Assembly: GCA_964544765.1 (NCBI GenBank)
Contig: CAZJDM010000003.1
Coordinates: 1 to 62,094, forward strand
Source of the DNA: an uncultured bacterium
GTDB lineage: Bacteria > Bdellovibrionota_B > Oligoflexia > CAYFLR01
DNA length: 62,094 bases
Reading direction: 5' to 3'
Positions 51,707 through 58,624 of the stretch are shown here, piece by piece. The notes below the pieces were generated by a model that made no database searches, was not told the origin of the DNA, and worked only from the letters and a program-made list of their open reading frames with translations. Every line of letters begins with the position of its first letter. Position 1 is the stretch's first letter. The translations under genes were made by a program, and so were the position numbers.

Positions 51707-53443
51707 GTGAAAAAAATGCCGAAAAATATATTAGCTTTCGGGTTAATAGAAGGTTTGGGACTTAATGATATGATTTTTAAATATAAAAATGATAAAAAAA
51801 TTAAATCAGGCGAAATAGAGCAAAGGCCTAGAATTATAAAAGGGTCTTTTCATAAAATGCTTAGTTTCGTTTGGTTTTTAGTATTTATCGGTAGTATATC
51901 CTGTGATCGTAGCCTGCCAGTGTCTTATGTCCGACAATCTTTCTTAGTAAATGAGCAAAGTGTTGATTCTCCAGAGGATCTTAAGAGAGATTTAGCTAAG
52001 TATAGGTTTGAAATGTTGACTAGGGATACCAATAGTCGTCATGCAAGAATTTCTGGTTTGGTAGTAAATTATTTGGCGATTGCCAATGATGTTCAGGTTC
52101 CTTTTATCGAGTGGGACCAAAATGATTATGTCGAGTTTGTTCGAGTTATGCGTTGTTTTCAATTTCCATCTACCGGACCTGCGGCTACGACTGACGGAGA
52201 CATCCTATCAGGAGCAGAATATAGTGGTGGAACTGTTAGTGGTTGGATGAAAAATGCTGGAACAAGTGATTTTCAAGCGCCGACTGAGCAGTTAGGCATG
52301 TCCTCATATGAAGATATTTATAGACAATCCTGGGATGCTGGTTTTCGAGATTGTTATGAAGTTGGTAATTCTTATATGGGAGATAGTGTTCAAGATCCTT
52401 CTGCTGAAACAGGTGATTATACTTATGTCGTTCAGGGGTGTTTTGAGAACCAAGGTTGTGGGCCTTTAGCTACATTTTCTAACTTCAATTATGTTCGCAA
52501 TTTACCTCTAGGAACAAAAGAGTTGTTTCAACAACGTGATCAAATTTTTGCTGAGTTAAAAGGCTTAGCCAGACAAATAGTTGAGTATGATGCCATTGCT
52601 GAACAGGAATATGCACGGTGTGATCAATTGAGAGAAGATGCTTTTGATGAGGATTTTGATCGAAGAATGACGGGGATATTTGTTGAGATGGGTGTGAACC
52701 TAACTTTAGGATTGATTACGGCCATGAGTATTGGAGATGGTAAAAAGAATGATGGAACCACTAAAACTACTGGAGCTACTAGTAATCAAGATAATGGGAT
52801 TATGGACAGAATTCAAAATCGATTGACAAACCGTGCTATTGGTCATTTTGCCGGTTATGGTGGAGATTGTGGTGCGCCGGCAGACAATGAAAGCTTTGAA
52901 GCAGAACAGGCTCGTATGGACTGTTATATTGGTAATTTAACCAGAGCAAGTAGTCTTGTCAAAGACTATGGACTAAAAAAAATTGACGGCATCGATCTGG
53001 GTTTTGGCTTATTAGGACTAGGAATTGATTCTTTGCCGATGAATAATTCAAGACTGGGAAGTGTGGGAATTGGCGGTATAGGAATTGCTATTCAAAGTTT
53101 TATGATTGACGAAGAAACTGCCAAAAATTTAAGAGAAAGCTGCCCTCTATATGATCAAGCTACCGCCAATAGAAATAGAAGTATTCAATTAGCTGAGATT
53201 AAAGGCTATGACTTAAAACAAAAAATAAATGAGATTAATAGATTGGGTGAAGAAGGGTTTATAGAAGAATCTACTCAATTAGAAGTAATGCAATTTAAGG
53301 CTAATAAGGAAATATGCGAAGAACAAGGTATGCGGTACGGGTATATACAAGGAATGCAAAAGGGCTGTATTCCTATAAATTCAAGCAATATGAATAATGC
53401 TGGTGATAGCACAGATGGAAGTTCCATGAGTAACGAGGTGTAA
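51707..53443 (+). CDS. Lipoprotein, paralog family A (Cys-patterned head, coiled coil, two Gly-rich hydrophobic segments); gene 1 of 5
   Basis: 578-aa ORF starting at a GTG preceded by AAGGAAA. Alternative starts are 51770 and 51857. The lipobox is 'FLVFIGSISC|D'. 'DYVEFVRVMRC', 'FRDCYEVG...GDYTYVVQGCFENQGC', 'ARCDQL' and the Gly-rich 'IFVEMGVNLTLGLITAMSIG' and 'LGFGLLGLGID...GSVGIGGIGIAIQSF' parallel ORFs 56119 and 57407. Confidence 0.6.
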   Translation: MKKMPKNILAFGLIEGLGLNDMIFKYKNDKKIKSGEIEQRPRIIKGSFHKMLSFVWFLVFIGSISCDRSLPVSYVRQSFLVNEQSVDSPEDLKRDLAKYRFEMLTRDTNSRHARISGLVVNYLAIANDVQVPFIEWDQNDYVEFVRVMRCFQFPSTGPAATTDGDILSGAEYSGGTVSGWMKNAGTSDFQAPTEQLGMSSYEDIYRQSWDAGFRDCYEVGNSYMGDSVQDPSAETGDYTYVVQGCFENQGCGPLATFSNFNYVRNLPLGTKELFQQRDQIFAELKGLARQIVEYDAIAEQEYARCDQLREDAFDEDFDRRMTGIFVEMGVNLTLGLITAMSIGDGKKNDGTTKTTGATSNQDNGIMDRIQNRLTNRAIGHFAGYGGDCGAPADNESFEAEQARMDCYIGNLTRASSLVKDYGLKKIDGIDLGFGLLGLGIDSLPMNNSRLGSVGIGGIGIAIQSFMIDEETAKNLRESCPLYDQATANRNRSIQLAEIKGYDLKQKINEINRLGEEGFIEESTQLEVMQFKANKEICEEQGMRYGYIQGMQKGCIPINSSNMNNAGDSTDGSSMSNEV

Positions 53444-53446
53444 GCA

Positions 53447-56118: not shown

Positions 56119-57438
56119 GTGAAAAGAGAACTTATACAAGTGAATAGATTATTAGAGATGGGAAAAGTTCTTCTGTTATGTTGTATTGGTTTATCGTTTA
56201 TTTATTCATGTACTGATGATGAACCTAGACCTAAGAGTAAACGATCTTCAATGCCAGAATTAGTAAATGGTATAGATGCTGCTACGGTTGAGGCCATACA
56301 AGCCATGGGTCTTCCTGTTAACAAGTTTATAAAATTACCAAAAGTTAATCCGGAAGGTTTAACTTTAAGAAATTTTAGTGTGGGATTAAAGGACCTGACA
56401 TATGGCAGTGTGATCACTCTTTCGTATGATAAAGATGCTCAGGCTGATTATATTCAAATTAAGCGTTGCGATAAATCTATTAAGGTTGATGGGTTGTTAA
56501 ATCAAAGACTGGGTGAAGTTACCATGGAAGATGTAATTGCAGCAGAGACTAAATACAATCAGATAACTAATGGTAATGTTCAGGGAGCCAGGGAAGTATA
56601 TCAGGTTAGTGATTTCTGGCGCAGTGCAAGTGTTAGTGGTTGTGAAGTGATAACAAATCTAGCGGTAGAGGATCGTTATTATGATTTAACCGCCAAGCCT
56701 GATCACGAGTATTATTATTTGGCTAGAGTTTGTGTACGCGACAGTCGTATTGATGAAGTACAAGCAACTTCAAAGGGGAATTGTAGTTCGCGAATTAAAA
56801 GTTCCAATACCATTACTTATGTTGAGCCGGTTAATCAAAAGAAAAAAGAACTTAAATTAAGATATCAACAGGCGCGAAATAAAATGAATAAATTTGTTTA
56901 TTTTGTGCATGATATTGCCATCAAATTATATGACTCCTATGATAAATGTGAATTAAAAAATATCGAGGGGCAAATAAGTAAAACCAGAAAAGAAGGCTTG
57001 GCCCTAATAGCCGGAATGTCTGTAGGAGCCGTGGCTTCAGTTGTTTCTGGAGGGTGGAGCAGTATGCTGGGAGGCATAAGTGCGGGAGCTAAGATAGGAT
57101 CTGCTTTTAGTGATATCATGGCCTCGCCAAGTGAATATGAGCGAAAATGCACTGAGGCAGAAAAATATCAGGGTCAGCTTGAACCGTACCAGAATCAATA
57201 TCTCAATTTAAAAGCGGAAATTGATGATATTTTAGAGGATCTTAAGACTGTCGATAACATTGATATAAACACTCAAACGGAAACAGACACATTGGATAGC
57301 TCGCAACAAGAAAATAGAGATGAATTTGAAGATAGTTCCAATCAGGAAAATCCGGATGATATTGTGGATAATAGTGGAATTAGTGGTGATGATAGCGGCG
57401 TAAGTAATGGAGACAGTAGGAATGATAGTGAGGAATAA
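56119..57438 (+). CDS. Lipoprotein, paralog family A (Cys-patterned head, coiled coil, glycine zipper, acidic tail); gene 4 of 5
   Basis: 439 aa, with a GTG start 4 nt after the upstream stop. The lipobox is 'LSFIYSC|T'. Motifs are 'DYIQIKRC', 'VSGCEV...HEYYYLARVCV...GNC' and 'KCELKN'. The Gly zipper 'LALIAGMSVGAVASVVSGGWSSMLGGISAGAKIGSAF' is at nt 56995-57110. Confidence 0.6.
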   Translation: MKRELIQVNRLLEMGKVLLLCCIGLSFIYSCTDDEPRPKSKRSSMPELVNGIDAATVEAIQAMGLPVNKFIKLPKVNPEGLTLRNFSVGLKDLTYGSVITLSYDKDAQADYIQIKRCDKSIKVDGLLNQRLGEVTMEDVIAAETKYNQITNGNVQGAREVYQVSDFWRSASVSGCEVITNLAVEDRYYDLTAKPDHEYYYLARVCVRDSRIDEVQATSKGNCSSRIKSSNTITYVEPVNQKKKELKLRYQQARNKMNKFVYFVHDIAIKLYDSYDKCELKNIEGQISKTRKEGLALIAGMSVGAVASVVSGGWSSMLGGISAGAKIGSAFSDIMASPSEYERKCTEAEKYQGQLEPYQNQYLNLKAEIDDILEDLKTVDNIDINTQTETDTLDSSQQENRDEFEDSSNQENPDDIVDNSGISGDDSGVSNGDSRNDSEE

Positions 57439-58624
57439 TGCTGTGAAAAGTTTTTGCTATTTACTAATATTATCAATATTAATCATTTCATGTGATGAAA
57501 AACCATTACCTCGATTAGGCAAAGGATCCGGAACTAAGGATTTTAGCGGTCAGAGTAGTGGGTCGGGTCAAGATAATGATCCAGATGGCTCCACTAAACC
57601 CGAGTTGGTTTTTGTTGACCCTTATAAAATAGAGATTAGGAAGATAAGAATGATTTTGGAACCCCGGGTTGCAGGTTCGACTTTAGGGAAATTTCCTATG
57701 GTTGAGGTGGAACTAGATAGTAAAACTCAATATTATCAAGTTATGCGCTGTCCGGTTGATGTTGAAAGAAAGCTAGTTACTTCGATGGGGTATAATCCTT
57801 TAACCAAAGAATATAGTGAGTATTCTTTATTTGCTCGCGATGATTATAAAGAGGTTTGGTCTCAAGTAGCTCCTCGAGTTGGATGTAAGATGGTAGCAGA
57901 TTTTGGGGTAGGTAAGAAATTTCATGATATTACGGCTTCAAGTGGTTCTTTCTTTTATCTGGTAAAACCGTGTGTAGTACAAGAAAGTACAATACGATCT
58001 GATAGATGCCATTATAAATATTATAAGACTAATGCTATGGAATGGCTAAATCCGGTCGCTTTAGAAAATCAAGAATTATTGCAGAGATTACATGGAGAAA
58101 GGGCAGCGGCAACCAGGAAATTATTGCAAATGTCAGATTTAATTCTGGCGGCTATGAATTATTTGGAGATTTGTGAGTATAATGAAATTCAAAAGATAGT
58201 GGCCAAGCGTCAGAAGGCCGGATGGATAAAGGTTCTTGCTACAGCGGTGGTAGGAGTGGTTGCTGGGTATTTTGGCGGTCCATTGGTAGGATTTAAAGCG
58301 GCAGAGGCTACGTTGTCATTGGCGGATAAATTATTTTCCAAATATTCGGATGCTCAGGTTAATTGCCCTAAAGCTGACCCTCTTTTTGATGAATATTTTG
58401 CTTTACGAGAAGAAATCGACCCTCATCTTACTGCAGCCAAGGAAATTCGTACTCAGTTGGGAGAATTAAAAGCTGAGGATAAGGGAGAAGCGGTCGATTC
58501 GGGAGTAGGCGTTGATATTACAGCAGAAAATCCTACTTGGGATGATTATGTAGATGTAGTTGAGAGGTTGAATCAGACCGTAGGGGAATCTACTGATGAT
58601 TCGCAGATGAGAAATAATCCCTAA
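57407..58624 (+). CDS. Lipoprotein, paralog family A; gene 5 of 5
   Basis: 405 aa, overlapping the upstream gene by 32 nt (alternative start 57422). The lipobox is 'LILIISC|D'. 'QYYQVMRC', 'RVGCKM...GSFFYLVKPCV...DRC', 'ICEYNE' and the Gly-rich 'WIKVLATAVVGVVAGYFGGPLVGF' (nt 58222-58324) are collinear with ORF 56119. Confidence 0.6.
   Translation: METVGMIVRNNAVKSFCYLLILSILIISCDEKPLPRLGKGSGTKDFSGQSSGSGQDNDPDGSTKPELVFVDPYKIEIRKIRMILEPRVAGSTLGKFPMVEVELDSKTQYYQVMRCPVDVERKLVTSMGYNPLTKEYSEYSLFARDDYKEVWSQVAPRVGCKMVADFGVGKKFHDITASSGSFFYLVKPCVVQESTIRSDRCHYKYYKTNAMEWLNPVALENQELLQRLHGERAAATRKLLQMSDLILAAMNYLEICEYNEIQKIVAKRQKAGWIKVLATAVVGVVAGYFGGPLVGFKAAEATLSLADKLFSKYSDAQVNCPKADPLFDEYFALREEIDPHLTAAKEIRTQLGELKAEDKGEAVDSGVGVDITAENPTWDDYVDVVERLNQTVGESTDDSQMRNNP

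Follow-up and report, generated by a model that had tools for sequence, protein, structure and literature searches.

A conserved cluster of lipoprotein genes as a candidate envelope system of an Oligoflexia-like diderm lineage

In the bi- and tripartite alpha-helical pore-forming toxins of the ClyA superfamily, each product is a long coiled-coil stalk with a hydrophobic head at its end, and membrane insertion of the head requires the hetero-oligomer. Phage spanins (Rz/Rz1 and the u-spanins) link both membranes through an outer-membrane lipoprotein with coiled coils, functional cysteines and a second membrane segment. Glycine-zipper lipoproteins of the outer membrane, e.g. SlyB and YfgH, act as oligomers that stabilise this membrane (bioRxiv 10.64898/2025.12.22.696046). 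Here we compare these systems with a cluster of five genes, A to E, in 62,094 nucleotides of DNA from an uncultured bacterium (GTDB lineage Bacteria; Bdellovibrionota_B; Oligoflexia; CAYFLR01; contig CAZJDM010000003.1 of assembly GCA_964544765.1), which we call the window. The window is an entire metagenome contig, and the same genes are found on several other contigs from ENA metagenome samples. An earlier note on this DNA had proposed a dedicated multi-component lipoprotein system, and our checks on known families, on co-occurrence and gene order, and on the leaders all came out in favour of that interpretation.

Conservation of the gene cluster

The order A-B-C-D-E, together with a divergently transcribed homologue of the neighbouring gene U290, recurs in three other genomes. 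The first is L005, a metagenome-assembled genome (MAG) of CAYFLR01 with 39% GC, in which all five genes lie in the same order at 26-46% identity, along with homologues of U290 and of a further neighbour, U663. L006, a MAG of JAPPIL01 (45% GC), has the same layout with products of 508, 184, 683, 425 and 341 aa, every one with a lipobox; D and E are clear there, C is weak, and the counterparts of A, B and U290 are syntenic and match the homologues in L018 or L005. L018, a 2.84-Mb contig (53% GC), carries A (7.5e-18) and B (1.7e-6; both by hidden Markov model, HMM), C (8e-45), D and E in addition to the divergent U290 homologue. The order is kept over genomes of 33-53% GC at 18-45% protein identity. 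Co-occurrence and a kept order in related genomes, on which the earlier proposal hinged, were thereby confirmed for L005, L006 and L018, and for C-D-E in L022 (40% GC), where the three genes reach the contig ends. As judged from gene order, the genes are one conserved system and not lineage-specific filler.

Reduced and rearranged versions of the cluster are also found. L014 (43% GC) has a rearranged cluster of five lipoproteins, comprising a 249-aa protein, a protein with a single C domain (3.7e-7), an A-like protein, D and E. The remaining loci (L007, L010-L013, L019, L021, L023 and L024) mainly consist of a D-type gene with an E-type gene immediately downstream, set among housekeeping genes. 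Over the carrier lineages as a whole these neighbours differ: ffh, ATP synthase genes and rpsU, recA, and pgk. Wherever both are visible, the D-type gene directly precedes the E-type gene, and this pair forms the widespread minimal core of the system. In one protein from a Logan contig, P0017 (772 aa), a D-type and an E-type unit are naturally fused in one polypeptide; its 90%-identity cluster includes MBP6219079.1 and MBP6219412.1, which carry an NCBI label as proteins of an Oligoflexales MAG. For other family members the NCBI labels give a hypothetical protein from a MAG of Oligoflexales, "Zetaproteobacteria" or "Pseudomonadota". Word-indexed homologue searches with D and C returned the query only, and it was an exhaustive HMMER search with a D+E profile that revealed the family. 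The genome scan used a narrow motif and therefore says little about the true phyletic spread.

Some further observations concern these loci. In an Oligoflexales MAG (L019, positions 6924-8414 and 11362-12393; GCA_017985985.1) a D-E pair stands beside a gene for an ATP/ADP translocase of the TLC family, the type of transporter that marks energy parasites, and after the D-E locus comes a secreted protein of 343 aa that consists of repeats rich in Cys (...C.W......C...). The U663 and C proteins are also present on a longer public contig (157,930 bp).

Lipobox leaders had been claimed for all five products, and this was borne out, in relaxed form for B. Under a rule like that of PROSITE PS51257 (group criterion: [LVI][ASTVI][GAS]C ending a hydrophobic leader near the N-terminus), the strict form is passed by A (Cys66, GSISC), C (Cys38), D (Cys31) and E (Cys29), while the leader of B (VFYAAC, Cys19) deviates at position -3 only and passes the relaxed form. 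Reading of the N-termini showed that this feature is conserved: a lipobox-like x-x-[GAST]-C is found in the L005, L006 and L018 orthologues of every one of the five genes, and likewise in all five cluster genes of L014. However, the run of lipoboxes is by itself only moderately surprising. Nine of the 42 open reading frames (ORFs) of at least 150 aa in the window pass the strict rule, so that the window is lipoprotein-rich, and the strong argument is therefore conservation rather than five lipoboxes in a row.

Protein families and the predicted structure of D

D and E are full-length paralogues (blastp 8e-18). A matches the HMM of the D/E family with E=4.7e-20 over profile positions 5-276, a stretch that runs from the leader to the hydrophobic segment and includes the N-domain and the coiled coil. 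One family therefore accounts for three of the five products, with A, on this profile match, as a divergent third paralogue. The claim that none of the products belongs to a family thus needs to be divided: it stands as far as described families are concerned, but not among the proteins themselves. With the D+E core profile, exhaustive HMMER searches returned 214 representatives (50% clustering) at E<=1e-3 and 46 at E<=1e-10, most of them lipoproteins of 330-450 aa. P0018 (1126 aa), P0075 and P0146 were rejected as members and left out of the family statistics; these repeat-rich, unrelated proteins scored spuriously via many short stretches, e.g. a repeated ...QRMRCVS... unit.

The cysteines are, with the hydrophobic tip, the most constant elements of the family. 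Of 147 representatives, 143-147 have Cys117, 175, 205 and 222 (D numbering), which are invariant wherever a residue is aligned; Cys277 is found in 139 of 147, Cys344 in 124 of 131, and the lipobox Cys is aligned in 130 of the 147. The sandwich domain has the signature DY[IV][QE]I.RC ... GC ... YY..R.C ... CS, of which DY[VI]EI[LIM]RC provides an easy search handle for the family. The lipoprotein A has an FN3-like N-domain patterned with cysteines (WDQNDYVEFVRVMRC...), together with a coiled coil and two hydrophobic segments rich in Gly; its orthologue in L005 was found by blastp (2.8e-45), and its counterpart in L006 is a syntenic lipoprotein that was aligned within the A profile and matches A of L018 (blastp 1.7e-20). 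E, the E-type paralogue, has the architecture of D, with orthologues in L005 (1e-102), L006 (4e-31) and L018. Acidic low-complexity tails, which had been ascribed to all five products, are present in A, D and E; in C the acidic stretch is an internal linker, and B has none.

An AlphaFold 2 (AF2) model of D, built from a 48-sequence alignment with a mean predicted local distance difference test (pLDDT) score of 75.6, shows in order a leader helix, a low-confidence linker (aa 31-80), a beta-sandwich, a helical hairpin and a disordered acidic tail. In Foldseek searches the sandwich matches FnIII domains with E of 4e-3 to 5e-2 at a probability of ~1.0 and a TM-score of ~0.5-0.7 relative to targets with a single FnIII domain, and the top 50 PDB matches with D are mostly FN3-type domains. 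However, the Pfam fn3 model is silent, and the FN3 assignment, resting on the model, would be valid at the fold level only. From the modelled helix length, the hairpin would span ~100-105 Å (70 residues at 1.5 Å per residue). Its tip contains the motifs G299xxxG303xxxS307xxxG311 and G319xxxG323xxxG327, with basic residues upstream and the conserved Cys277 and Cys344 on either side. Across the family the tip holds 15% Gly and 14% Ala, as compared with 6.4% and 10% overall, and a median of three small-xxx-small-xxx-small motifs, with basic residues upstream in most members.

The other three products are of different kinds. C contains two homologous copies (~aa 70-335 and 485-725) of a new domain, joined by an acidic low-complexity linker; aligned by hhalign, the two halves match at 95% with E=3.7e-8 over 196 columns, and in front of each copy are a predicted helix and a conserved GCF motif. 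On this alignment C is an internal, tandem duplication of a second new domain. Orthologues of C are found in L005 (4.6e-130) and, in addition to that of L018, in L006 (blastp 4e-4; 4e-68 to C of L018), and the C of L022 is partial (domain HMM 1.3e-49). B is a small acidic lipoprotein with four further cysteines, for which there is an orthologue in L005 (blastp 1.5e-6) and a 184-aa lipoprotein at the same position in L006; it is not present in the reduced D-E loci. U290 consists of a signal peptide resembling type I, a linker rich in Thr, Asn and Pro, and a C-terminal domain. A homologue of U290 is found in L005 (2e-41), and the L018 protein at its divergent position matches the proteins of L005 (6.8e-9) and L006 (3.4e-5), so that U290 is, by its conservation, a sixth component of the set. 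The block and one of its divergent neighbours had also been said to have a domain in common. This was not upheld, and we reject as unsupported the idea that U290 carries the C domain: the C-domain HMM scored E=0.076 against U290, with the best shuffled control at 0.33, and hhalign gave E=0.015 over 57 columns, neither of which is significant.

Comparisons with described families placed none of the proteins in one with confidence. Pfam, NCBIfam, PADLOC and PHROGs yielded nothing credible for A-E or for U290 and U663, and no PADLOC defence-protein model matched any of these seven at E<=0.1. Sequence and profile searches of the PDB gave no match for the five proteins, and Foldseek searches of the D model against PDB and BFVD returned generic FN3 matches only, with no global match. 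The earlier statement that the proteins fit no known family has thus survived all of these checks, and a full-text literature search found no description of the family or cluster. Among more specific candidates, the ClyA superfamily had no Pfam match in the family and no Foldseek PDB match to the D model at E<=1e-3. The type V pilin families of Pfam and NCBIfam were without a match, the D model being an FN3-like sandwich with a helical hairpin. For spanins there was no PHROGs match and no relative in a motif scan of viral contigs, and the neighbours are housekeeping genes. One of 12 family members showed a weak NCBIfam match to YiaD_Gzip_OmpA (9e-4). We reject a phage, plasmid or defence origin: PADLOC, PHROGs, the motif scan of viral contigs and tblastn of D against a plasmid collection were all negative, the latter two finding no relative.

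Layout of the locus and neighbouring genes

All five ORFs were found on the forward strand at the positions and with the lengths first reported (Table 1). Their tight spacing was likewise confirmed from the ORF coordinates, with a gap of 3 nt between A and B, an overlap of 8 nt between B and C, a gap of 4 nt between C and D and an overlap of 32 nt between D and E.

Table 1. Positions in the window of the cluster genes, the divergent genes and the modelled parts of D
Feature	Position	Strand	Remarks
A	51707-53443	+	ORF of 578 aa as listed
B	53447-53944	+	ORF of 165 aa
C	53937-56114	+	ORF of 725 aa
D	56119-57438	+	ORF of 439 aa
E	57407-58624	+	ORF of 405 aa as listed
U290	50618-51490	-	divergently transcribed gene of a secreted protein
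U663	48751-50592	-	public gene call, 613 aa
Divergent intergenic region	51491-51706		216 bp, AT-rich; between U290 and A (basis: position)
FN3-like beta-sandwich of D	56365-56820	+	aa 83-234; model strands, Foldseek
Helical hairpin of D	56836-57336	+	H240-309, H314-333, H345-406; model secondary structure
Gly/Ala-rich hydrophobic hairpin tip of D	56989-57117	+	aa 291-333; hydropathy

Starts at GTG directly behind purine-rich ribosome-binding strings had been claimed for four of the genes. This holds for B, C and D, whose GTG codons lie 7-10 nt downstream of GAGG or GGAGG strings (GAGGTG precedes the start of B), but not for A, where only a GGA lies ~2 nt from the listed GTG. Because this purine run abuts the GTG, A probably starts at one of two ATG codons, at 51716 (575 aa, as in the public gene call) or at 51857. 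For E, the likely start is the ATG at 57422, which has a better Shine-Dalgarno string and is also the start in the public gene call; the product would then have 400 aa and the D/E overlap would shrink to 17 nt. No terminator-like site was found at any of the A-E junctions, and there were no Rfam matches in the window. The intergenic region between U290 and A presumably holds the promoters of U290 and of the A-E operon, given its position, and one weak sigma-70-like site was seen at 51490-51519. Positions 52001-58000 of the window have a GC content of ~36-38%, as against 31-36% over most of the upstream window (0.32-0.35 in most 2-kb bins), and a strongly positive GC skew (0.22-0.34). The rise in GC continues downstream, so the block is not a sharply bounded island.

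The block had been described as divergently paired with two secreted proteins. U290 is conserved in this position, as shown above, whereas U663 is restricted to the lineage of the window and L005: it adjoins the block there only, its place is taken by a different gene in L006 and L018, and it is absent from L014. U663 is a lipoprotein with five homologues (P0151-P0155), which share an invariant H231-G232 and C276 (H-G ... S-C-x-S-G), 45 residues apart and each following a predicted beta-strand. It has no Pfam match and no PDB sequence match. Its AF2 model has a mean pLDDT of 63, with low confidence around the motif, and caspase-1 p20 recurs among the Foldseek matches, weakly (E ~2). The motif and the N-terminal strands are suggestive of, though they do not prove, a resemblance to the legumain/caspase (clan CD) peptidases. 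A mechanical ORF call for U663 covers 48751-50742 on the reverse strand with a TTG start and overlaps U290, while the public call starts near 50592. Next to U663 lies U235 (47771-48478, reverse strand), a lipoprotein (ILSC) of no family, for which no homologue was found in L005, L006 or L018.

Several other genes of the window deserve a brief mention. A lipoprotein with an FGE-sulfatase domain (59809-60801, reverse strand) is partly similar to the lipoproteins GldK/PorK and GldJ of type IX secretion and gliding; the NCBIfam match (3.7e-27) is far under the cut-off, and the gene is not kept beside the block in other genomes. A homologue of enoyl-CoA hydratase (58724-59770, forward strand) has an apparent N-terminal signal peptide (MNKFLIIILFLLSTILWAEP), which is unusual for this cytoplasmic family. 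Six FG-GAP repeats (E=4e-67) are found in a 1285-aa protein (34419-38276, reverse strand). Many proteins of the contig defy annotation; four further large ORFs of 932, 375, 788 and 596 aa at 58-2856, 15547-16674, 17389-19755 and 20030-21820 have no Pfam match at 1e-5.

A proposed envelope complex and its relation to described systems

We hypothesize that the cluster encodes a conserved, undescribed multi-component lipoprotein envelope system of a diderm Oligoflexia-like lineage, with a constitutive structural role, and we place the probability of this reading at roughly 0.4. LptF/LptG and an SLT-domain lytic transglycosylase are encoded in the window, and Ffh and BamD just past its end (overlapping contig L001); LptF/LptG, the transglycosylase and BamD indicate that the host has an outer membrane and is a lipopolysaccharide-bearing diderm. 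From the constant adjacency of D and E, the overlapping or nearly abutting frames and the natural fusion P0017, which may serve as a "Rosetta stone" for an interaction between D and E, we infer that the A-E products form one physical assembly. According to our hypothesis Sec export, lipidation and disulfide formation of the lipoproteins would come first, after which D and E (with A) would pair side by side along their coiled-coil stalks into a hetero-oligomer. This would have two anchors, namely the acyl chains at the N-termini and the glycine-zipper-like tip, the latter either dipping into the complex's own membrane or reaching the opposite one. The stalk (~105 Å), the sandwich (~40 Å) and the ~50-residue linker (up to ~150 Å) would together reach ~145-300 Å, so that the complex could fold back to one membrane or bridge the periplasm. 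B, C and U290 would be lineage-specific accessory or capping subunits, and the role of the complex would be stabilisation of the outer membrane, its tethering, or the spacing of the periplasm. A constitutive role in the envelope is favoured by the core-genome context and by the finding that neither mobile elements nor immunity genes are linked to the cluster; moreover, a vertically inherited core function fits the housekeeping setting, and the negative viral, plasmid and defence searches, better than a mobile toxin does.

However, this reading should be taken with some caution, since several results weigh against it. No homology ties the system to any function, and none of the Glycine-zipper Pfam families was found at E<=0.01 in 48 members of the A/D/E family. 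The tip is borderline for membrane insertion, with a family-wide median best 19-residue Kyte-Doolittle score of 1.57 (borderline transmembrane-like), and its loop varies in length, so that it could instead be a helix-packing surface within a soluble bundle. A disulfide staple between Cys277 and Cys344 was proposed because both are equidistant from the hairpin turn. The pattern of loss gives this no support: seven sequences have the first Cys only, seven the second only, and none lacks both.

The same architecture could be read as a weapon. A surface-displayed, contact-dependent membrane-attacking machine would have A, D and E act like the bi- or tripartite alpha-helical pore-forming toxins (YaxAB/XaxAB, AhlABC/SmhABC, Hbl/Nhe), with the hydrophobic heads of the stalks co-inserting into a prey or host membrane, the lipid anchor holding the proteins on the producer surface, and C, B and U290 as binding or chaperoning subunits. 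In favour of this, the cluster has three adjacent paralogues, in each of which a hydrophobic segment caps a long helical hairpin, and most components have acidic residues after the lipobox Cys, which recall the surface-export signals of Bacteroidota lipoproteins. The Oligoflexia/Bdellovibrionota-like lineage moreover includes predators and host-associated bacteria, one carrier MAG has the ATP/ADP translocase gene beside its D-E pair, and another bears the isolate code RHO2, which we take to denote a sponge sample. Nevertheless, we consider this reading unlikely: no match to the ClyA, Hbl or Yax families was obtained by sequence or by fold, the surroundings contain no immunity-like gene, and the housekeeping context is stable, with no link to mobile elements. 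To our knowledge, the known alpha-pore-forming toxins are also soluble and secreted, without lipid anchors, FN3 domains or invariant cysteines. In a variant that we find more doubtful still, A, D and E would be new lipid-tethered, heteromeric alpha-helical membrane inserters, i.e. a pore-forming or fusogenic device of the cell surface that evolved independently of the ClyA superfamily and that Oligoflexia-like bacteria bring directly against the membranes of prey or host, its targeting or capping subunits being C, B and U290.

Just as doubtful, in our view, is a surface coat or adhesin made of lipoproteins exported to the cell surface. The FN3-like and C domains would bind substrates or other cells, with the coiled coils as spacers, and the hydrophobic segment would serve to form oligomers and not to enter a membrane. 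Extracellular adhesive proteins do typically show an FN3-like fold, cysteine patterns, tandem beta-rich domains such as those of C, and low-complexity linkers that are acidic or rich in Thr/Asn, and the viral Foldseek matches are FN3 modules of phage tail fibres; yet what is most conserved here is the cysteines and the hydrophobic tip, unlike a fast-evolving binding surface, the stoichiometry and order of D and E are fixed, and no adhesin or S-layer family was matched. That there is no single system, and that lineage-specific lipoproteins with independent or no important functions are neighbours by chance, would suit a lipoprotein-rich window and the many D-E loci without B, C and U290. We regard this as very unlikely, given an order kept over such a range of GC at so low a protein identity, frames that overlap or nearly abut, a D-E fusion, and cysteines that are invariant over 147 representatives. 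Least probable of all is that the lipoproteins are precursors cleaved or linked by U663 as a clan-CD peptidase or transpeptidase, analogous to the gingipain-matured type V pilins of Bacteroidota. The spacing of its invariant motifs behind predicted strands, the recurrence of caspase-1 p20 and the conservation of U663 beside the block in the window and L005 speak for such an enzyme, but L006, L018 and L014 have the system without it, U663 has no Pfam or PDB sequence match, its Foldseek matches have E ~2 with a model of low confidence around the motif, and the fold of D differs from that of a type V pilin.

If the envelope reading is correct, the cluster adds two new protein families, the FN3-stalk-glycine-zipper lipoproteins (A/D/E) and the C domain, and a dedicated envelope machine, in an Oligoflexia/Bdellovibrionota-like lineage that is almost unstudied and includes predators and symbionts. 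It would bear on how the outer membrane is held or spaced in diderms that may be without the classical Lpp tether, and on the use of the glycine-zipper element beyond enterobacteria. The D-E pair, with its invariant cysteines and natural fusion form, is a well-defined target for structural and genetic work.

We rate the system as outside every known kind, although its building blocks are familiar: a lipid anchor, an FN3-like sandwich, a coiled coil and a glycine-rich hydrophobic helix. D has neither the fold nor the profile of the type V pilins (FimA/Mfa). U663 has an invariant His-Gly ... Cys pattern after predicted strands that may correspond to the catalytic dyad of the clan CD peptidases (C13 legumain, C14 caspase), whose fold is of the caspase-haemoglobinase type; caspase-1 was matched at E ~2 with a model of low confidence at the site. 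FnIII domains (titin, cytokine receptors, phage tail fibres), which are seven-stranded sandwiches, are the best structural matches of the beta-sandwich in the N-domain of D, which differs from them in its inserted helices (H136-150, H166-173) and in four invariant cysteines that are atypical of FnIII. In contrast to phage spanins, the proteins described here are far larger, stand in no prophage context and are encoded by a gene set conserved on the chromosome. With the bi- and tripartite toxins of the ClyA superfamily they have in common two or three adjacent paralogous genes, but a lipobox, an FN3-like domain, conserved cysteines and core-genome contexts set them apart, as does the lack of any profile or fold match.

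The glycine-zipper lipoproteins (SlyB, YfgH, OsmB, YiaD; Pfam Rick_17kDa_Anti, Gly-zipper) share with the A/D/E family an N-terminal lipid anchor, a hydrophobic helix of the GxxxG type and a beta-rich periplasmic domain, and, like the glycine-zipper 2TM lipoproteins, D has a hydrophobic helical hairpin in which GxxxG or small-xxx-small motifs recur. However, the A/D/E family has no significant match to the SlyB/YfgH/OsmB profiles (PF05433, PF13488 and relatives) and no detectable sequence relationship with these proteins. Its zipper is at the tip of a ~100 Å coiled-coil hairpin, far from the anchor; its members are 3-4 times larger, with an FN3-like domain holding four invariant cysteines, and they are found in fixed combinations of two or three heterologous members, accompanied by other dedicated partners. 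By analogy, a complex of A, D and E would resemble SlyB and YfgH in function, though not in construction.

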